In this document: positions 3,243-12,693 of the stretch, piece after piece | Layout of the letters: the number at the start of each line of letters is the position of its first letter | Position numbering within the stretch: the stretch's first letter is position 1 | DNA from: a virus | UHGV virus genome: UHGV-0085052 | Strand: one strand, 5' to 3' | Length of the DNA stretch: 35,543 bases | The notes under the pieces: model-generated | The model's database searches: none | Told to the model about the DNA's origin: nothing | What the model saw: only the letters and a program-made list of their open reading frames with translations | Program-made: the position numbers and the translations under genes

Positions 3243-3803
3243 TTATTTTAAAGTACAGCCTGCCCGAAATGCACTGCTAATTTCAACATATTCCGCTCTG
3301 GCCGTACCTCTAAGTTTCTGAGACTCACGTTCAAAACTCGCCAAATCTTCCTTACATTTTGCCGAAGTAGACTGGAATCCTTTCCCGCACATCTGAAATG
3401 TGACTGTCGGATCCGCAAATCGGGTACGCTGGGCGTAAGCCTGGCAAACAGCGGATGCCCTCGCTTGTTTTTGTCGTGGGCTTAACGGGCGTGCTGGTGT
3501 AGCCTGTTCTGCCCTCTCCATTTTCAGGCGGTAGCAGCTTAAATTACGAGAGGCGATCACCTTTTTAATAGCCTGGGCGCGGCGATAATTTTCATTAAAT
3601 TCAGGATGAGATGATGGATTAAGGTTGAGCAATGGCTCTATATTATCTTCTGCTTGGCAAAGCTGTGAATCGGTGTACTGCGCAAGTTTTGCCGCCTCGA
3701 TTGCAGCCGGATCTGGTTGTGAATTTTTTGGGGTATGGCTTACACATCCGGACAGCGTAAATCCAGCGGTCAGTGCTAAGATGATTTTTGATATTCCGTT
3801 CAT
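3243..3803 (-). CDS. Cysteine-rich lipoprotein, unknown function
   Basis: Signal peptide plus lipobox (LTAGFTLSGC); 8 Cys; no family recognised. Confidence 0.45.
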   Translation of the reverse strand: MNGISKIILALTAGFTLSGCVSHTPKNSQPDPAAIEAAKLAQYTDSQLCQAEDNIEPLLNLNPSSHPEFNENYRRAQAIKKVIASRNLSCYRLKMERAEQATPARPLSPRQKQARASAVCQAYAQRTRFADPTVTFQMCGKGFQSTSAKCKEDLASFERESQKLRGTARAEYVEISSAFRAGCTLK

Positions 3804-3934: not shown

Positions 3935-5170
3935 TCAGAATTTCCGTTCTTTCCAGCGTTTAACCAACGCGGCCATGTTCAGCGGCCATAATTTAGGCTC
4001 AATCACTTTGCCTTCAAACATCGCGCCGAGCTCAATACCTGGGGCAAAATGTACGGTCATTGTTTCAGGGTTGACGGCCATCAGCTCTGCGTCTAGTAAG
4101 TCGTGTATCGTTGGAGTCAACAACAGGCCATTATCAGCGCTAAAATTGCCTGAGGTAGCTGGCTCAATGTGCGCCGCTTGCAATCGTTCGCCGTTCTGCC
4201 AGCCAGTCACCGCGCAACGGCCAGCAAAATTATTCCATACCCATTCAACAAACTGCATATGCGCCGTCGCGTCGCGCTGCTCAACGATGCGCTGCGCGGT
4301 TCGGGTACTGTGGAGTTTGGCAGGTTGGCCAAGTGCGGGCGCGGGTTTCTCTTCCTCCACGACGACCACTACTTCCTGCGACATGATGATTGGATCATCG
4401 GCTACCAGTTCCGGAACAACGTCGGCCAGCTTCTCGGCTTCTCGGATGATTTGCTTTTCTTCCTGCTCATCCAGGTACCGCTGCACCAGTTCAATGGTCG
4501 TGGTGGCTTCATGCTGGTGTTTGTGGATATAAAGCTCAACATCACGACGCTGGCTGGCTGGAATGTGTTTTGCCAGAAAATCCTGTAGGACGCGATTATC
4601 CAGCTTTGTCGTAACTTTTGATGTCATGCTCACAGAATCATACCGTTTCGGTGTTTCCATCTGCGTTGATTGCAGGCCTGGTAATTCGGTGTTGATTTGA
4701 GCGGAAACCTTGCGCGGGATGATTGTCGGCGTAAATGCTGGCGTGCTGGCCTGGGACGTGCCACGGCGACGGGCATTCTCCCAAAGGGCTTCTGTTTCAG
4801 GGTTTTTGCGTGCGCCTGGCTTTTGCATAGGCATAGTGCGAATCAGCGCTTCCCAGCCCATATTGACCTTCTGTTTGGCCTCGCGGCGTTTATCGGCCAG
4901 CGTAGGTTTTGATGGTCGTTTTTTGGAGAGCGCTTTCTCTGGTTTTAATTTGATGCCGCGCGATAAACCATTTATCAGTGTTGGATGCACTGATAAGGCT
5001 TTGGCCAATTGCAAACCGTTTAAATTGCTGCCATCTGTATAAGCGTACATAAACAAATCCGCCCAGCCATCATGTTGAGGGGTCATACCCACGCTGGTTA
5101 AGGCTGCGCGAATCTCTTTTTTGCGAGCTTTGTCCAAGTTAAATTTTGGGGTTTTATTTCGCTTAGTCAT
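3935..5170 (-). CDS. HNH-type endonuclease domain protein (unknown N-terminal domain, basic low-complexity linker, C-terminal HNH)
   Basis: C-terminal motif CAVTGW...LQAAHIEP...NGLLLTPTIHDLLD matches the HNH nuclease pattern (Cys/His ligands plus conserved Asn). Confidence 0.55.
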   Translation of the reverse strand: MTKRNKTPKFNLDKARKKEIRAALTSVGMTPQHDGWADLFMYAYTDGSNLNGLQLAKALSVHPTLINGLSRGIKLKPEKALSKKRPSKPTLADKRREAKQKVNMGWEALIRTMPMQKPGARKNPETEALWENARRRGTSQASTPAFTPTIIPRKVSAQINTELPGLQSTQMETPKRYDSVSMTSKVTTKLDNRVLQDFLAKHIPASQRRDVELYIHKHQHEATTTIELVQRYLDEQEEKQIIREAEKLADVVPELVADDPIIMSQEVVVVVEEEKPAPALGQPAKLHSTRTAQRIVEQRDATAHMQFVEWVWNNFAGRCAVTGWQNGERLQAAHIEPATSGNFSADNGLLLTPTIHDLLDAELMAVNPETMTVHFAPGIELGAMFEGKVIEPKLWPLNMAALVKRWKERKF

Positions 5171-5250: not shown

Positions 5251-6108
<858 letters not shown>

Positions 6109-6298
6109 TCAATTGACAACTTATAGTTCCCACTAGTTAGCATTAAGATTTTTACAGAGAGGAATAATCAATGTCCGCTCTTGGCACAGAGTGGACGAAC
6201 AACTGAAGGTCCGCTGTGAGCGAAGTGCGGACTGTCTTTACCAGTCTTCCTGGCAGATGGCTTTGGACGCAGAAACGATTTCTAAACGCACGAACCCA

Positions 6299-7417
6299 TC
6301 ATTTTTTTGTAATACCAAATTTAATCAATGTTTTTTGTAAATCTTTAATTGATATCTCACCTGAATTACCGGTTTTGAAACTGGATTCAACTTCCTTACA
6401 TCGAATTATTTTCATAGTTCCAGAACTGGTAAGCTCAGTGTCAAATAAATAAAATGGGGCGCAAGGGCTATGTCTTCTATTATCGCGAAGAAGAAATTCG
6501 ATTGGTTCCTTTTTATGTTCATCGAAGCCTGGTCCAAAAATAACACCAGCTATCAATGGTGGGGCATGGTGATGTATACGTCCTGAATTATCATTAGACA
6601 ATGCAAAATTAAGCCTGCCAAAACTTTGCGTCAAATACCTTTTGGTGAGAAAAATTCTTTTTTCATCCTCATATTGCCAGAAGGTATTTTTCACTAAAAG
6701 AGTTTCTCTGATTGCAATATCATCCGTCAAAGCACTTTGAAGAACCGGTATATGTTTTTCATGGTTTCTATATTCAACGCTATCAATAGGGTAGTTAATA
6801 TATTCTTCTGAATAAATATTTCTCTTCAAAGGGATAATATTGTTTTGTGCATGGTAGATAATAACACAACCCTTGAAACCAGCTGCGTAATGTGCCCACA
6901 TCATTGGTTCTAAAGCATTGCTCGAAAATGAAACGCTAAAGACACCTACTCGCAATCCTTTGAGAACCCTCTCTCTAATGCCGCTGGAGCAAATAGATTC
7001 CAGTCGAGATATTGACTTATCTGAATCCTCGAGCACACCAAAATCAATTAAATCGACCTGTTTAATGTGTTGATTTAAAGCAGCCTTTACTTCAGAGTCG
7101 TATTTTGTGAAAACACTTTGAAGCCCTTCTATGGAGCCATCAATAGGAGAGCCTAAAAATATGCGACACAGTTGCTTTGCAAGCCTACCATCGCCCAAAT
7201 CCAGAAAGTCTTTTAAGTTTTTGACACCTAAAATCACCTCGCTTTCTAGAAGACTTTGCCAGAGATCAGGTCTATCCTCAAAGAAATAAGAAGTTTTCAA
7301 GTCATTAGGGTCATTTAGTTGCTCTGTAGACGAAAAATATAATTCGTTGTATCTGATGGCTTTTTCAAAGAAAAAATCCGGCCTGTAATATTTAAATAGA
7401 TACACACAACACCTCAA
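6299..7417 (-). CDS. DUF2971-like protein (372 aa), AT-rich gene
   Basis: N-terminal YLFKYYRPDFFFEKAIRYNELYFSSTEQLNDPND resembles the DUF2971 signature (kYr...LyfSsp..fNDP); codon usage is markedly AT-rich versus neighbours. Confidence 0.45.
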   Translation of the reverse strand: MRCCVYLFKYYRPDFFFEKAIRYNELYFSSTEQLNDPNDLKTSYFFEDRPDLWQSLLESEVILGVKNLKDFLDLGDGRLAKQLCRIFLGSPIDGSIEGLQSVFTKYDSEVKAALNQHIKQVDLIDFGVLEDSDKSISRLESICSSGIRERVLKGLRVGVFSVSFSSNALEPMMWAHYAAGFKGCVIIYHAQNNIIPLKRNIYSEEYINYPIDSVEYRNHEKHIPVLQSALTDDIAIRETLLVKNTFWQYEDEKRIFLTKRYLTQSFGRLNFALSNDNSGRIHHHAPPLIAGVIFGPGFDEHKKEPIEFLLRDNRRHSPCAPFYLFDTELTSSGTMKIIRCKEVESSFKTGNSGEISIKDLQKTLIKFGITKK

Positions 7418-7745
7418 AAAATATGGAAACCCCGATACAATTATTTATCACTTACAAACTACGATTATCAAATAAATACATCCAACGTAGTTCCAGTGTC
7501 ATTCGCAGAGATATCCTTATCTTTTATGATTAGAATGTAAAGCTTTGTGTGATGGTACAACTATGCATCCACAGTCTGCTCTTGCACAAAGCAGCCAGAA
7601 AAGGATTGGCAAATCCACCTGGAGCGAGAAGCGGACTTTCTTCTTGGTTCTGATGGCTCAGAAGTGGCAAGATTATTTGTGGCAATTCAAAACACATTTT
7701 TGACGAACTACGAATGAATGTTGCATCGGTTAAAGGTGATAAATA

Positions 7746-9599
7746 ATGAAGAACGAACGTTACCCGTTGGACTTGGCTATTTCGGTTCAGGACTTCAATA
7801 CGTCAGACTGGAAGGATTCAATTGCCCAAGCTACCCGCGAAGGATATTCGGCGATGTGGCAAGCGCTGTCGGATGCTGCGCGTGATGCCATTGAGCAAGG
7901 ACGAATTGAACACGGCAAGGTATTATGGTTGCTTGCAGATGCCTGTTCGATGATGCTTTCGCCGTCGAGTCCTAATGAACCCTTTAAGCCTTTTGCTGTC
8001 TTTCATGACCGCAGGTCAGTCGTCCCTGATGACATTTCTGATTCAGATATTCTGTTCTTTGCAGAGATCGTTGATGGGGTAGACAACGATTGGCTGAAGG
8101 CGCGACTCAGTGATTTGGTCTGGTTGAAGAGTAAGCCTCGTAACATCGAATTCGCTTTGAAGGCTATCGACGCTTACCGCAGCCTTCCACTAGACACTGA
8201 TACATGGATACATGGAGGGCGGGATTGTTGGTCTCGCGCCATAAGCTTGGCTCGAATGCTAAAAGGTGGTGCTGGAGATAGACTCCAGCAAATTGAGACG
8301 ACAATCGTTGCCGCGTTTCATGCGTCAATTCGAGACGACGGTTTTCTTGGGCTTTGGTTGGCCGACCTTCTAAAATCGAACCGCTTGGGGGGGGCACATC
8401 GAACGGATGTGTCAACGAAGCTAGAAGCGTTGGCCCGCGGGTTTGATGATGAAGGGGATTTGCATAAGGCGCGGGAGTATTTTTCTGCTGCTGCCGAGTG
8501 GTATAAGCTTATTCCTGACGAGGCCAAAGCTGCAGAAATGACAGTATTGGTAGCTGAAGGGTGGGTCAAAGAAGCCGTTGCGCGAGTTGCATCGGAAAGT
8601 CCTAGCCACATGGTGGCAGCGAGCTTTTACGAAAATGCCATTCAGATATACAGAACGATTCCTCGGGCCGAACGCTCTACACATCAGGTCGATGAGCGAA
8701 TTGCCGAGTTGCGAGTCCACCTAAACAATTCGGGAGAGAGAGCTATAGGAGAGATGGGGCTCATTCAAACTCCTGGAGTAGATCTCACTCAGGTTATCGA
8801 AAAGGCGAGGGAATCCGTCACCGGGAAATCTGCACAAAATGCGTTGCTCGCATTTGCGAACCTACATCGTGGCGTGAATGCAGAAGAACTGCGCAACAGT
8901 GCATTGGAAAGAATGCGTCAGCATCCCTTGCAATCACTGTTTGCCGTAACCGTGATGAGTCGCGATGGCAGGGTCATTGCCAAGCGCCCTGCGATGGGAC
9001 TCGGTGGAGAATTGACAGAGGACGACGAAATTGCAATTCGCGCCGAGATGATTCGTGACTATGGAATCTTAGTTAGTATTGTGGTTCAAGCCCACATCTG
9101 GCCAGCCCTTGAAGTACTTTTGCTTGAGCATCGTTTGCGCGAGAGCGATTTTATCGAGTTAGCTCGCCATTCACCCATTGTGCCAAAAGAGCGAGTTGGC
9201 CTTTTCGGCAAGGGACTTTTTGCAGGTTACGAACGTGATTTCGTTACCGCGCTTCATTTACTGATCCCTCAGATTGAGCACTTGGTGCGCGTGCATCTTA
9301 AGCAAGCAGGAACCAAAACCACTAACCTCGACAAGGATGGAATTGAGAACGAGAATGGTATGAGCACGTTGGTGGGTTTGCCAGAGGCCGAGCAAGTATT
9401 TGGTAAAGATCTCGTCTTTGAGTTCGAATCGTTGTTCTGTAACGCCTTTGGTCCAAATTTGCGGAACGAATTGGCTCATGGACTATTGGATGAGGATGGG
9501 TGCAATTCCCCTTTCGCTATTTATGCGTGGTGGCTAGCTTTAAGACTAACATTCAATACATGGTGGAACTCAGCAAATCCTATTTCTGAGCCTCAATAA
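7746..9599 (+). CDS. Large protein (617 aa) with C-terminal HEPN-like Rx4HG motif; candidate RNase/abortive-infection-type effector
   Basis: Mostly alpha-helical-looking sequence; C-terminal FGPNLRNELAHGLLDE contains an R-x4-H-G arrangement typical of HEPN active sites; contains a G8 homopolymer near 8387-8394. Confidence 0.4.
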   Translation: MKNERYPLDLAISVQDFNTSDWKDSIAQATREGYSAMWQALSDAARDAIEQGRIEHGKVLWLLADACSMMLSPSSPNEPFKPFAVFHDRRSVVPDDISDSDILFFAEIVDGVDNDWLKARLSDLVWLKSKPRNIEFALKAIDAYRSLPLDTDTWIHGGRDCWSRAISLARMLKGGAGDRLQQIETTIVAAFHASIRDDGFLGLWLADLLKSNRLGGAHRTDVSTKLEALARGFDDEGDLHKAREYFSAAAEWYKLIPDEAKAAEMTVLVAEGWVKEAVARVASESPSHMVAASFYENAIQIYRTIPRAERSTHQVDERIAELRVHLNNSGERAIGEMGLIQTPGVDLTQVIEKARESVTGKSAQNALLAFANLHRGVNAEELRNSALERMRQHPLQSLFAVTVMSRDGRVIAKRPAMGLGGELTEDDEIAIRAEMIRDYGILVSIVVQAHIWPALEVLLLEHRLRESDFIELARHSPIVPKERVGLFGKGLFAGYERDFVTALHLLIPQIEHLVRVHLKQAGTKTTNLDKDGIENENGMSTLVGLPEAEQVFGKDLVFEFESLFCNAFGPNLRNELAHGLLDEDGCNSPFAIYAWWLALRLTFNTWWNSANPISEPQ

Positions 9600-9847
9600 G
9601 GTAGCGACGAGCAAGCAGTGGCCTAGTAACCCCTCTGAAAAAGCGGCGTGTGCATAAGTAGAATTCTTTATTAACCTAAATGTAGGGGGGAGCTGTGTAT
9701 ACACTGCTCACCCCATTCAATCACACACCGCGATGTTTGTAGTGCCTGCTTCTGGCACAAAGTGGACTGTCAGATTAAATTCGGCTCCTCGCCATAGATG
9801 TGTCAGCTCATATCTTATCTAATACACACAATAATTCTCTCATTCTT

Positions 9848-9910
9848 AGAGAATTATTTTTTTAAGGGTAGGTGTTGACGTTAGAACAAAAGAATAGATA
9901 TTTTTGAAGC
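9848..9910 (+). repeat. Direct repeat copy B (partner of 1540-1600); looks like a remnant of the 3' end of a paralogue of ORF 1396-1653
   Basis: 26-bp exact identity with copy A plus flanking near-identity; not in an ORF here. Confidence 0.7.
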
Positions 9911-9989
9911 ATACAATATGACCTATAACCATAGGATGCATAAAAAAGCTTACGGTGTGGCCTTATAACTTAGCGCAAATAATTTACTA

Positions 9990-10017
9990 ACCCGCTTCGG
10001 CGGGTTTTCTTTTTTAT
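9990..10017 (+). terminator. Intrinsic terminator (CCCGC-TTCG-GCGGG followed by a T-run)
   Basis: Perfect GC stem with tetraloop and TTTTCTTTTTT tail, seen directly. Confidence 0.6.
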
Positions 10018-10049
10018 AGACTTCACGATGTGAAAACGAATAATAAATT

Positions 10050-10727
10050 GTGCAAATAATGCAGTTTTTATTATTCGAGGTAATTATGAAAACCTTCTAT
10101 GAGGACTGGCCTGAAACTTTCGTTAGCCGGTTAGATATGTTACGAGCTCTGGATGATCGCGGCTCGACCCGGAGGCTCTATCTTGAGCGGACCGGAGCAA
10201 TATTTGACGCTCTGGCAGAAGAGATACGTACAGCCGTTGCCGGGCATCCTGAAATCGACGCGAGTGAACTTGATATCGGGCCGCTGTATCGCTATTACAA
10301 ACGTGGAGAAAAGGGGGATCCGCTGGCTGATTTACTTATTGAGTTAGCTCCACCAACCTGTGAACGGGTTCGTATATCTCCTGAAGTGTACACAATCCCG
10401 TATCTGTTTTTTGCACTGTTGATAGCGCAAGGCGCTGACAACGATGCTCGCGATTTTTTCAATATGATGATGCGACCGTTGATCATCGCCTACCGTTTCA
10501 AACAACTGGCGCGTTACCTTGGCACTAAGGGCGGAGGACGACCACAGCACAGATTAAAAAGCGAAGCCATTGAACTGGCTGATCGTTTTTTTACTGAAAA
10601 CCCGACAGCGCCATTATCGCGTGGTGTGCAATACATATCCGGTATTTTTGTGGCGAAATACTCTGACCCACCTGCAGCGTCGACGATTAGAAAATGGTTA
10701 ATTTCAATTTACAGGAGTGATAAATAA
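10050..10727 (+). CDS. Hypothetical protein (moron); probable start at the internal ATG near 10086 (MKTFYEDW...)
   Basis: ORF with RBS-like GAGG before the internal ATG; preceded by a terminator and AT-rich promoter-like DNA and followed by a hairpin; no family recognised. Confidence 0.4.
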   Translation: MQIMQFLLFEVIMKTFYEDWPETFVSRLDMLRALDDRGSTRRLYLERTGAIFDALAEEIRTAVAGHPEIDASELDIGPLYRYYKRGEKGDPLADLLIELAPPTCERVRISPEVYTIPYLFFALLIAQGADNDARDFFNMMMRPLIIAYRFKQLARYLGTKGGGRPQHRLKSEAIELADRFFTENPTAPLSRGVQYISGIFVAKYSDPPAASTIRKWLISIYRSDK

Positions 10728-10878
10728 TGACCATAAACGGTTTAATCCCCTATAAAACCGTTTAATAAAATTCACGACGTGAATATAATTGTTCATTATT
10801 CCCTCATTGTATCTGGCGTTATGACAAATGCCATAAAATACTGTATAAATATACAGGTAATGGCGTTAGGGGGAAGAC

Positions 10879-11058
10879 ATGAATATTCAAGAATCTATAG
10901 GCGAACTACCGGAAACATGCCGAGCTGTTATCAAGCGTAAGGACGGACACATCGTTGGTGTGCGTGTTCTGACTGATGATGAACGGATTGCCAGCCTGAT
11001 GGCGTTTCTCGAGTTGGCAGAAATAGCTGGATATACTATTACACCCCCTGACGCGTAA
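10879..11058 (+). CDS. Small hypothetical ORF (59 aa, below the track cutoff)
   Basis: ATG preceded by GGGGGAAG RBS-like sequence; translation MNIQESIGELPETCRAVIKRKDGHIVGVRVLTDDERIASLMAFLELAEIAGYTITPPDA; located by eye. Confidence 0.2.
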   Translation: MNIQESIGELPETCRAVIKRKDGHIVGVRVLTDDERIASLMAFLELAEIAGYTITPPDA

Positions 11059-11135
11059 AACACGGTATAATATCGGTGCTGGATTGAACACCCGGCACCA
11101 TTTTCTGAACACTGCCGCGCCACCTGGAGTTAACC

Positions 11136-11732
11136 ATGGCGCAGCATTCATTTATCAGGGTATCCGGCGGTTCGCTAATACCCGCGACACCAGACACGCA
11201 ACGCTGGTTGACTGAACGAGTCAAACCAGGTGCTGTTGTGTATGCAGATTTCAAACAGGCGCGTAATCCCGCGTTTCATCGTAAATTTTTCTCACTTCTA
11301 AACCTGGGCTTTGATTACTGGCATCCGTCCGGAGGGGCTATTTCTCCTACGGAGCGCGAACTGGTCCATGGCTACGTTAAGTTACTGGCGTATTACGGTG
11401 GACACGGTGATGTCATGGCAGAGCTGGCTGATCAGTATCTTCTCGATGAGTCGGAAAAGCGCGCGGGGAATATCAGTGCGGTTAAGTCGTTCGAGGCGTT
11501 TCGCGCATGGGCGATTATGGAAGCTGGGTTTTATGACGTTCATCAGATGCCAGACGGCAGTTTGATGCGCGTACCTCGTTCAATCTCGTTTGCTGCGATG
11601 GACGATCTTGAGTTCGGTCAACTGTATTCAGCCGTTTTAGATGTGCTGTGGAATTATATTTTGTTCCGCACGTTTGCCTCTCAGGAGGCCGCTGAAAATG
11701 CTGCCGCGCAGCTGCTGGATTACACATCATGA
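11136..11732 (+). CDS. DUF1367-family lambdoid phage protein
   Basis: Sequence and position (immediately upstream of YbcO-like and Q-like genes) match the conserved DUF1367/YbcO/Q block of enterobacterial lambdoid prophages. Confidence 0.55.
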   Translation: MAQHSFIRVSGGSLIPATPDTQRWLTERVKPGAVVYADFKQARNPAFHRKFFSLLNLGFDYWHPSGGAISPTERELVHGYVKLLAYYGGHGDVMAELADQYLLDESEKRAGNISAVKSFEAFRAWAIMEAGFYDVHQMPDGSLMRVPRSISFAAMDDLEFGQLYSAVLDVLWNYILFRTFASQEAAENAAAQLLDYTS

Positions 11733-12022
11733 AAAAAATCGACCTGAGAAAAGCTGCACGTGGTCGCGCTTGTACTGTGCGTATCCCCGGTGTGTGCAAT
11801 CACAATCCTGAAACCAGCTTACTGGCTCATTATCGTCTCGCCGGAACGTGCGGCACAGCCATCAAACCTCACGATATGCAGGGCGCTATCGCCTGTAGTG
11901 CGTGTCACGATGCTATCGACGGACGTACAAAAACGGATTACGAGTACGACTCATTGTTGTTGATGCACGCTGAGGGAGTTTTAAGAACACTGGCTATCTG
12001 GCGCGATGAGGAGTTTATCTGA
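11729..12022 (+). CDS. YbcO-like (DUF1364) putative nuclease
   Basis: 97 aa, KAARGRACTVRIPGVCNHNPETSLLAHYRL with a Cys/His cluster resembling DLP12 YbcO; start overlaps the upstream stop. Confidence 0.55.
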   Translation: MKKIDLRKAARGRACTVRIPGVCNHNPETSLLAHYRLAGTCGTAIKPHDMQGAIACSACHDAIDGRTKTDYEYDSLLLMHAEGVLRTLAIWRDEEFI

Positions 12023-12693
12023 TGAGTAACGAGTATTTATTGGAATATACCCGCATAAAACTGCGCGCTGCATTACGGGATTTGTCTGGTGGTTCTAAGG
12101 GGCAACTGGAAGCATTGTGTGAGCACCCGCCAGCAGATAAAAACGCATACCCACGCAAACATATTCATCGTGTGCAACTGGAGGACCGGACCGTTGATGC
12201 TCTGGTTACGCCAGTTTATGCCCTGGAAAGTTTCAGCAGACGTCGTCCCGCGCCGCCGATGAATGATTTTGAATTCGCTGATTCATCGTGGCGCCGCGCC
12301 GTGAATTCGCTCGACGTTAGCCAGCAGGCGTGGTTGCGCTATTGCTACGGTGGTCACCTGGCGTTCAAACACCAAACAGCTATTTGTGAGGCTGTCTGGA
12401 TTCGCTATAAAGGACACATCCCCGCGTCAACTCAGAGAAAAGTAGCTAAGCGCCTGCTTTCGTTGGTATGGTTGTCCGTGCAGGCGGTTGCAGCAGCAAA
12501 TAAACGCGAGGATTTTAAGGAGATGGCTGGATCTGCGCTAGCTGGAATGTTGTCTGTTTCTCGTTCCACCTGGTGCGAAACATACTCCCCGCACTGGGAA
12601 GGAATGAAAGAGGCGGTGAGAGCACTTGATGAAGTGGCACTTTTTGCAACTTTGCATCATTATCAGAACCATTTAGACGACGTTTGCGTATAA
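12022..12693 (+). CDS. Late-gene antiterminator Q-like protein
   Basis: 223 aa; position directly upstream of a promoter/terminator pair and the lysis cassette; resembles the Q-family antiterminators of Gifsy/DLP12-type prophages. Confidence 0.55.
   Translation: MSNEYLLEYTRIKLRAALRDLSGGSKGQLEALCEHPPADKNAYPRKHIHRVQLEDRTVDALVTPVYALESFSRRRPAPPMNDFEFADSSWRRAVNSLDVSQQAWLRYCYGGHLAFKHQTAICEAVWIRYKGHIPASTQRKVAKRLLSLVWLSVQAVAAANKREDFKEMAGSALAGMLSVSRSTWCETYSPHWEGMKEAVRALDEVALFATLHHYQNHLDDVCV

Follow-up and report, generated by a model that had tools for sequence, protein, structure and literature searches.

A DUF4209 (HEPN) protein of a lambdoid prophage as a candidate single-gene anti-phage ribonuclease of the PDC-S39 family

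Ribonucleases (RNases) of the HEPN superfamily are metal-independent endoribonucleases that leave a 2',3'-cyclic phosphate product, and their composite active site is formed by dimerisation of HEPN domains. In active members, helix 3 ends in an Rx4-6H motif, in which a polar residue (N, D or H) follows the arginine, and an acidic residue lies further upstream as part of an Ex3[KR] motif of helix 2; for Rx4-6H there is mutagenesis precedent in PrrC, RloC and RNase L (Anantharaman et al. 2013, PMC3710099). Here, we examine a gene of the virus genome UHGV-0085052, a stretch of 35,543 nucleotides that was analysed as a whole and that we call the window. The gene lies at 7746-9599, and the C-terminal domain of its product is, according to the predicted structure, a HEPN fold with a complete and invariant active-site set (E511-x3-R515 and R573-N-x3-H578-G579). 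We consider it probable that the protein is a cytoplasmic single-chain sensor-effector of the DUF4209 (C6orf70/ERMARD-type) HEPN family, carried as a self-contained 2.1-kb defence cassette in an accessory slot of a lambdoid prophage.

The placement of DUF4209 in the HEPN superfamily goes back to 2013, when it was described as the C6orf70 family (now ERMARD) and predicted to be catalytically active. For its bacterial members, Table 1 of that study gives 'fused to TPR' and an occurrence 'in R-M related operons' (R-M, restriction-modification), while its eukaryotic members were traced to the eukaryotes' last common ancestor (LECA), with a role predicted to lie in degrading RNA rather than in immunity (Anantharaman et al. 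2013, PMC3710099). The window protein resembles this family in its RNxxxHG signature, its fusion to TPR-like repeats and the presence of relatives in R-M operons. It differs from the eukaryotic prototype, a membrane-anchored protein of the endoplasmic reticulum for which RNA decay is proposed, in being soluble and bacterial or prophage-borne, and in having an extra N-terminal DUF7380 domain. The literature searched holds no biochemical test of either the ERMARD prototype or the window protein, and nothing on ERMARD in connection with HEPN.

The second line of earlier work concerns PDC-S39, one of 145 untested 'guilt-by-embedding' candidates that entered PADLOC after being drawn from operons of BREX, DISARM and type I R-M; it is not among the seven systems validated in that study (Payne et al. 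2024, bioRxiv 10.1101/2024.01.29.577857), whose supplementary files do not mention it by name. It is also not among the eight candidates assayed in a later cold-seep study and, besides its source study, appears in the literature searched in genome census lists only. The window protein matches the PDC-S39 hidden Markov model over its full length, is encoded by a single gene, and has relatives with the same R-M or DISARM embedding. It differs in that the window copy occupies a cargo slot of a lambdoid prophage and is not R-M-embedded, and PDC-S39 is itself a prediction. Both the HEPN assignment (2013) and the defence candidacy (2024) predate the present analysis, so that our reading is supported but already known. 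The gene is a member of this catalogued candidate family and would most likely encode a self-contained anti-phage RNase, not a new kind of system.

Several HEPN defences have been characterized further. HepS, from the Salmonella prophage Gifsy-1, is a solo HEPN protein that forms a latent tetramer, is triggered by a siphovirus tail-tip protein and cleaves tRNA in the anticodon loop; the histidine of its Rx4-6H motif is essential (Sargen et al. 2026, PMC13043305). Like HepS, the window protein is a single-gene HEPN protein without an inhibitor partner, and both occupy an accessory slot between replication and late-regulation genes of a lambdoid prophage. By description, HepS is a small HEPN-only protomer with its motif at residues 100-105, whereas the window protein has 617 residues in three parts. 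By analogy, HepS would be the best functional model. PrrC and RloC also have a C-terminal HEPN RNase with catalytic R and H and, like many relatives of the window protein, lie between hsdS and hsdR; their N-terminal part, however, is an ABC-ATPase, where the window protein has DUF7380 and TPR-like repeats, no match to a nucleoside triphosphatase (NTPase), and no adjacent R-M genes. Two further single-protein HEPN defences are likewise prophage-borne or embedded: Tha, from S. aureus prophages, is activated by a phage structural protein (PMC11087260), and HEC-08, a DUF3644 HEPN protein, loses its defence when the HEPN histidine is mutated (Payne et al. 2024, bioRxiv 10.1101/2024.01.29.577857). 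They belong to other HEPN families with other accessory domains (zinc-ribbon-like in HEC-08), and no sequence similarity to the window protein is detectable.

Domain architecture, active site and predicted fold

The gene and the parts of its product are as follows.

7746..9599, + strand: coding sequence of the DUF7380 / TPR-like / DUF4209 (HEPN) protein, PADLOC PDC-S39 family; 617 aa, ATG start (from the list of open reading frames (ORFs), Pfam and PADLOC)
7770..8276, + strand: N-terminal DUF7380 domain, aa 9-177 (Pfam PF24098), with near-invariant R120, D123, W126, Y144 and R164 in alignment A1 (see below)
8283..9005, + strand: central helical-repeat region, TPR/SNAP-like, aa ~180-420; candidate sensor or scaffold and least conserved part
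9018..9581, + strand: C-terminal HEPN domain, aa ~425-612 (DUF4209 at aa 510-600)
9276..9290, + strand: E511-H-L-V-R515, Ex3[KR] motif of HEPN helix 2 and second active-site element, from conservation
9462..9482, + strand: R573-N-E-L-A-H578-G579, Rx4H catalytic motif with a polar N after R, from conservation

The protein has a three-part architecture of DUF7380, TPR/SNAP-like repeats and a HEPN domain. In Pfam, DUF7380 matches aa 9-177 (E 2.4e-49, 168 bits) and DUF4209 (PF13910) matches aa 510-600 (E 6.3e-20, 71.5 bits where the cut-off is 22.3, with positions 1-88 of the 89-position model covered); apart from these, the protein has only a weak SNAP match, and no NTPase domain. The repeat region gave TPR-like profile and fold matches. 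The PADLOC match to PDC-S39 (PDLC05012) runs over the full length (E 3.9e-265, protein positions 1-612 against 1-606 of the 615 profile positions) and, as expected of this single-gene candidate, no neighbour is conserved and the cassette holds one gene. Assignment of the C-terminal domain is consistent over the family: PF13910 was matched by all 60 C-terminal domains of relatives that were scanned, and a Pfam scan of the same 60 domains at relaxed E-value found no second HEPN-clan family. No NCBIfam model matched the protein or its neighbours, and no match to Abi2 (AbiD/AbiF) or other named Abi HEPN profiles was found in Pfam, PADLOC or NCBIfam. Sequence searches of the PDB with the protein, its full-length profile or the profile of the C-terminal domain returned TPR-type matches or noise and no HEPN protein; the DUF7380 region had no match in the profile search, and the name DUF7380 does not occur in the literature searched.

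A reading made from the letters alone (the sequence-only reading) had described a 617-residue protein at 7746-9599 with an R-x4-H-G arrangement near its C-terminus. Both stand: the ORF list contains the protein, and the motif lies in FGPNLRNELAHGLLDE (aa 568-583, nt 9447-9494), which includes R573, H578 and G579. A bare Rx4-6H is not above chance in this protein: it occurs 5 times, while shuffles that preserve composition lead one to expect 3.65 (P = 0.30). The motif therefore needed testing by conservation and fold; the fuller RNxxxHG signature is rare in shuffles (P = 0.002). The significance of the motif rests on conservation, the Pfam match and the fold, not on the Rx4-6H match itself.

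Conservation was assessed in alignment A1, whose 147 sequences share 20-94% identity with the window protein, and in a separate second alignment of 143 sequences. Five columns are invariant in A1, namely P508, E511, R515, H578 and G579, and R573 is conserved in at least 90% of A1 and in 99% of the second alignment. The sequence-only reading was to fall if the arginine and histidine were not conserved among homologues, and they are conserved. Around them, N574 (92%), N571, G569 and A577 are 92-97% conserved, and Q509 at least 90% in A1, while relatives in P2-like phages (~22% identity) keep R-H-x-x-A-H at the same alignment position. The HEPN core (aa 499-612) is the best conserved part of the protein and the repeats at aa 181-270 are the least conserved.

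The full-length AlphaFold2 model built with A1 has a predicted local distance difference test score (pLDDT) of 95.5 and a predicted template modelling score (pTM) of 0.84, and is nearly all helical with two small hairpins. In the C-terminal domain, the helix at 499-520 bears ExxxR and is followed by a hairpin and short helices (526-543) that form a typical insert, then by the helix at 546-565, a distorted turn with R573-H578, and a long last helix (589-610). The domain is modelled as an up-down bundle of four helices, helices 2 and 3 being separated by an insert, and it resembles solved HEPN domains. Among 48,164 chains searched by structure, at least 24 of the top 30 matches are HEPN proteins. 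They include stand-alone HEPN proteins (AF0298, YutE, TTHA0636, TT1696, ST0689), Csm6 (four entries), Csx1, the sacsin HEPN domain, Las1, LAS1L and roquin, as well as AbiA, RnlA and LsoA; MtlR stands lower in the list. Structure prediction and a search for the fold had been proposed as the check on the sequence-only reading, which comes through with a HEPN fold. The long helical region that it had noticed before the motif is almost entirely helical in the model, and corresponds to DUF7380 plus the TPR/SNAP-like repeats; its suggested role as a sensor is kept as a candidate one.

All sequence hallmarks of an active HEPN domain are present, that is, Rx4H with a polar N and an upstream Ex3R (E511 and R515 in the helix at 499-520). 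This bears on the view that the protein has no catalytic activity and is a helical-repeat scaffold or regulator whose HEPN-like domain serves for binding only, as in MtlR or nucleotidyltransferase-associated HEPN. We hold this to be the least probable of the readings considered: non-catalytic HEPN families have lost Rx4-6H (Anantharaman et al. 2013, PMC3710099), whereas here the conservation of the R, the H, the polar N and the Ex3R is 92-100% in alignments that reach down to 20% overall identity.

A large, mobile family and its association with defence genes

The family is very large. In a HMMER scan of 1.84 billion representatives, 4,621 clusters (50% identity) were matched at E <= 1e-3 and 1,600 at E <= 1e-30, and nearly all proteins among the matches listed are 600-640 aa long and align end to end. 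The exact protein is found on 456 public contigs (index of 978 blocks), as 'DUF4209 domain-containing protein' of Escherichia coli or as MULTISPECIES Enterobacteriaceae; megablast of the cassette (7622-9762) gave no match in 5,426 complete RefSeq E. coli genomes or in phage records. The contrast suggests that the prophage variant is lineage-restricted and that finished E. coli genomes under-represent it. Distant relatives occur on 35 plasmids, and a haloarchaeal plasmid (Natrinema, H21) also bears one. Relatives with 56-60% identity are found in the archaeal genus Methanoculleus on two contigs, L024 and L038, the copy on L024 lying inside an hsdM-hsdS-X-hsdR-YgjP operon. Judging from sequence, the Methanoculleus copies point to a recent inter-domain transfer of a whole R-M-plus-HEPN unit.

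To examine the context of relatives, 80 loci were taken from species-representative genomes, genes were called and neighbours were clustered; 75 loci were usable. No neighbour family is universal among them. At about 19 loci, hsdS, hsdM or hsdR lies on the same strand, typically in the order hsdM-hsdS-[gene]-hsdR-YgjP, and at five others (L005, L017, L022, L025 and L045) the gene is within a DISARM-type operon, drmD-drmMI-[gene]-drmA-drmB-drmC. The full order in L017 and L025 is SNF2 helicase, Eco57I/MmeI-type methylase, the gene, large helicase, MZB-domain protein (PF09369) and PLD nuclease; in L005, two additional genes precede the helicase, and L022 and L045 have a fragmented upstream part or none. 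A Schlafen/AlbA_2 protein is a frequent downstream neighbour. This genome set is independent of the one from which the PADLOC candidates were defined, and it recovers the same R-M and DISARM embedding, as well as the TPR fusion and R-M operons tabulated for bacterial C6orf70 members; the window copy itself is outside any R-M operon.

Such embedding brings in the main rival explanation, in which the protein is a guard or back-up of restriction systems comparable to PrrC. It would be silenced by a type I R-M or DISARM complex and freed when a phage anti-restriction protein disables that complex; in the window, it would act in trans with an R-M system of the host or be an orphan. In its favour, about one-third of the sampled relatives are flanked on the same strand by hsdS and hsdR or by drmMI and drmA, and PrrC is embedded in type I R-M in nearly all cases. 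In E. coli, an 84%-identical copy (L091-L093) belongs to a Tn7-like element (TnsA/B/C/D/E) in the order BrxR-hsdM-hsdS-[gene]-hsdR, with the reading frames of hsdS (5721-7004), the gene (7001-8911) and hsdR (8911-12036) overlapping by 4 and 1 nt, which suggests that the embedded gene is translationally coupled with the R-M subunits. The high conservation of the family is also expected if a conserved host complex is sensed. However, about two-thirds of the loci, the window included, have no adjacent R-M or DISARM genes, the gene travels as a single-gene cassette with its own leader, and the protein lacks the ABC-ATPase domain of PrrC and RloC; moreover, unrelated solo defence genes are often embedded in R-M operons without dependence on them (Payne et al. 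2024, bioRxiv 10.1101/2024.01.29.577857). We regard a PrrC-like guard role as unlikely, main rival though it is. A broader proposal, to which we give a similarly low and if anything smaller probability, is that DUF7380 and the TPR-like repeats form a dedicated sensor of restriction-complex integrity or of a conserved anti-restriction protein. Its family, whose roughly 4,600 clusters (50% identity) come from bacteria, archaea, plasmids and phages, would then be a very widespread 'anti-anti-restriction' guard, working either embedded in type I R-M or DISARM operons or solo. On this proposal the protein, being the nearest relative in prokaryotes of the LECA-age HEPN domain of ERMARD, could also be a first biochemical handle on an uncharacterised human protein.

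The other relatives show the mobility of the gene, which in the window is contained in the following unit.

7622..9762, + strand: mobile single-gene cassette of 2.1 kb, made of the coding sequence with ~124 bp upstream and ~163 bp downstream, recurring in unrelated contexts (blastn)

By blastn, this segment is 95.3% identical to a Providencia island at smpB over 7622-9762, and 88.1% identical to an integrative and conjugative element (ICE) of Dickeya over 7654-9743. The Providencia copy (94%-identical protein) adjoins Gabija in this integrase-bearing island, and the Dickeya copy (89%-identical protein) adjoins the type IV secretion genes of the ICE. The gene moves as a single-gene cassette among prophage, ICE, Tn7-like and island contexts. 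More distant relatives are carried by P2-like phages between gpA and gpQ, as in vB_EcoM-569R9 (L002, 5593-7524); this interval is the old/tin defence hotspot. Another, ORF612 of P2-EC46 (L001, 220-2058), is in a 2.2-kb record with no other genes, and no literature on P2-EC46 was found. Most members of this P2-like phage clade match only DUF7380 in Pfam.

An active HEPN RNase could also have a role other than defence, either in RNA processing of the prophage or host, in the control of induction, or as an addiction module that stabilizes its mobile element. That the gene is always on mobile elements (prophage, ICE, Tn7-like element, plasmids, P2-like phages) would fit, as would the RNA degradation, not immunity, predicted for eukaryotic C6orf70/ERMARD members. 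Yet the gene resides in swap-in cargo slots and not in the conserved phage backbone, in unrelated elements its neighbours include known defence genes (PD-T4-3, Gabija, R-M, DISARM), and an addiction module needs an antitoxin or labile inhibitor, none of which is conserved. This makes a non-defence role improbable. Like the inert scaffold and the pairing with the DUF2971 gene discussed below, it is less likely than the reading that we favour.

The association with defence genes is both local, with a PD-T4-3 homologue and a PDC-S31-like gene, and found near relatives, with Gabija, R-M, DISARM and BrxR. The gene is autonomous, mobile and consistently associated with defence genes.

We infer RNase activity, toxicity and phage defence of the protein from its analogy with HepS, Tha, PrrC/RloC, RnlA and HEC-08. 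On that model, a latent protein would be made in the lysogen, its N-terminal and repeat module keeping the HEPN domain off until an infection cue is bound, which might be a phage protein or the loss of a restriction complex. Activation would pair two HEPN domains into a composite, metal-independent RNase site; this site would cut tRNA or mRNA, so that translation stops and the infection is aborted, with protection of the lysogen population and the prophage. Several observations weigh against this reading. No experimental test of any family member (DUF4209, DUF7380 or PDC-S39) was found in the literature searched, and Foldseek with the domain model gave nothing significant against the PDB (best E 0.6). 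A scan of the 124-bp leader of the cassette for sigma-70 promoters found no convincing site. Finally, conservation is unusually high for a sensor of phage, with relatives of 74-98% identity spread over alpha-, beta- and gammaproteobacteria; a conserved cue or recent transfer would account for this better than would an arms race with phage proteins.

If the proposed function is true, the gene adds one more prophage-borne single-protein HEPN abortive-infection nuclease to a theme set by HepS, Tha, PrrC and RnlA. Its value lies in offering a defined target for validation of PDC-S39, within a very large and highly mobile family: the catalytic residues to mutate are clear (E511, R515, R573 and H578), and the native 2.1-kb cassette can be cloned unchanged. 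As solo and R-M-embedded copies both exist, they make it possible to examine whether an embedded defence gene relies on the operon around it. Some comparative interest comes from the link to eukaryotic ERMARD at the level of Pfam.

The prophage cargo slot and the divergent DUF2971 gene

The window is a lambdoid prophage that encodes NinB, an HNH protein, the Q antiterminator, holin, endolysin, the large terminase and a portal protein; sister contigs have a DnaB-type helicase upstream. Accessory genes run between the replication genes and the nin/Q region, and the DUF4209 gene is among them. The genes to its left, and the slot that holds it, are listed below.

6224..9750, no strand: variable cargo slot with the DUF2971 gene and the DUF4209 gene, from comparison with sister prophages
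6299..7417, - strand: DUF2971-like gene (start at 7405 in other assemblies), weak-to-moderate match to PADLOC PDC-S31 (E 6e-20)
5251-6087, - strand: PD-T4-3 homologue, a GIY-YIG protein of 278 aa (Pfam LEM-3_GIY-YIG; PADLOC E 6.5e-138, almost end to end)
3935-5170, - strand: HNH_2 protein of 411 aa (phrog_23050), weak PADLOC 'HNH' match
3243-3803, - strand: protein of 186 aa with no match in any library
1866-2789, - strand: LprI-family (lysozyme-inhibitor-like) protein of 307 aa (phrog_5094)

In the sister prophage of E. coli CFSAN061769, the flanks are 97.7-98.7% identical, and three unrelated genes replace 6224-9750. This segment is a swap-in cargo slot, because sister prophages hold different genes there. 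The cargo of CFSAN061769 (L089, 5043-9000) consists of hypothetical proteins of 459, 220 and 259 aa without PADLOC match, and that of E. coli SK1144 (L090, ~5335-9150) of an ImmA/IrrE (CapP/RmrA-like) peptidase and small genes next to it; these cargo genes may be defence genes not yet catalogued. Further left, the segment with the LprI, 186-aa and HNH_2 genes is 98.7% identical in the CFSAN061769 prophage, whereas SK1144 retains the LprI part only. PD-T4-3 is a defence gene from the functional screen of Vassallo et al.

The sequence-only reading had set the DUF4209 gene divergent from a DUF2971-like gene across ~330 bp, with no antitoxin-like partner in evidence. The intergenic distance is indeed 328-340 bp, no partner gene is conserved in the 75 loci, and the cassette holds a single gene. 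It is conceivable that the two divergent genes form one system, in which DUF2971 would be a sensor, antitoxin or co-effector, since they have the intergenic region in common and together account for the 3.5 kb in which the window and the sister prophage differ. We consider this very unlikely: a homologue of the window's DUF2971 protein was found near none of the 75 related loci, the cassette common to Providencia and Dickeya begins at 7622-7654 and so excludes DUF2971, and each protein matches a separate single-gene PADLOC candidate. The composition also differs sharply, with GC 36% and third-position GC (GC3) 31% in the DUF2971 gene against GC 50% and GC3 48% in the DUF4209 gene, the neighbours having GC 45-51%. 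DUF2971 was rejected as a partner on co-occurrence, cassette boundaries and GC content. As it is unlinked to the DUF4209 gene elsewhere, it is probably independent cargo of foreign origin. Neither an MNT antitoxin (as in HEPN-MNT pairs) nor any other conserved small partner was found in the window or the 75 related loci, and Rfam and tRNA scans of the whole window returned nothing, leaving no candidate for a ToxI-like RNA antitoxin.

At the 5' end of the DUF4209 gene, an in-frame TAA at 7740-7742, two codons before the ATG, makes extension of the ORF upstream impossible. Searches of the flanking intergenic regions for small ORFs, repeats and hairpins found nothing convincing. A GC-rich 19-nt palindrome (GGGGGGAGCTGTGTATACA / TGTATACACTGCTCACCCC) at 9685-9714, 86 nt past the stop codon and within the mobile cassette, has no T-run, and does not fold better than shuffled sequence (z = -1.3). 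The signals and features read next to the gene are the following.

7732-7739, + strand: AAAGGTGA, Shine-Dalgarno-like, 6 nt 5' of the ATG, read from the sequence
9989..10006, + strand: intrinsic-terminator-like hairpin with T-run, found by scan 3' of the gene, outside the cassette and in the conserved phage backbone common to E. coli prophages

To the right of the cargo slot, the first gene of the conserved backbone is an ORF of phrog_5215 at 10050-10727 (+ strand; 225 aa with a GTG start), which is annotated elsewhere as 213 aa with a start near 10086.

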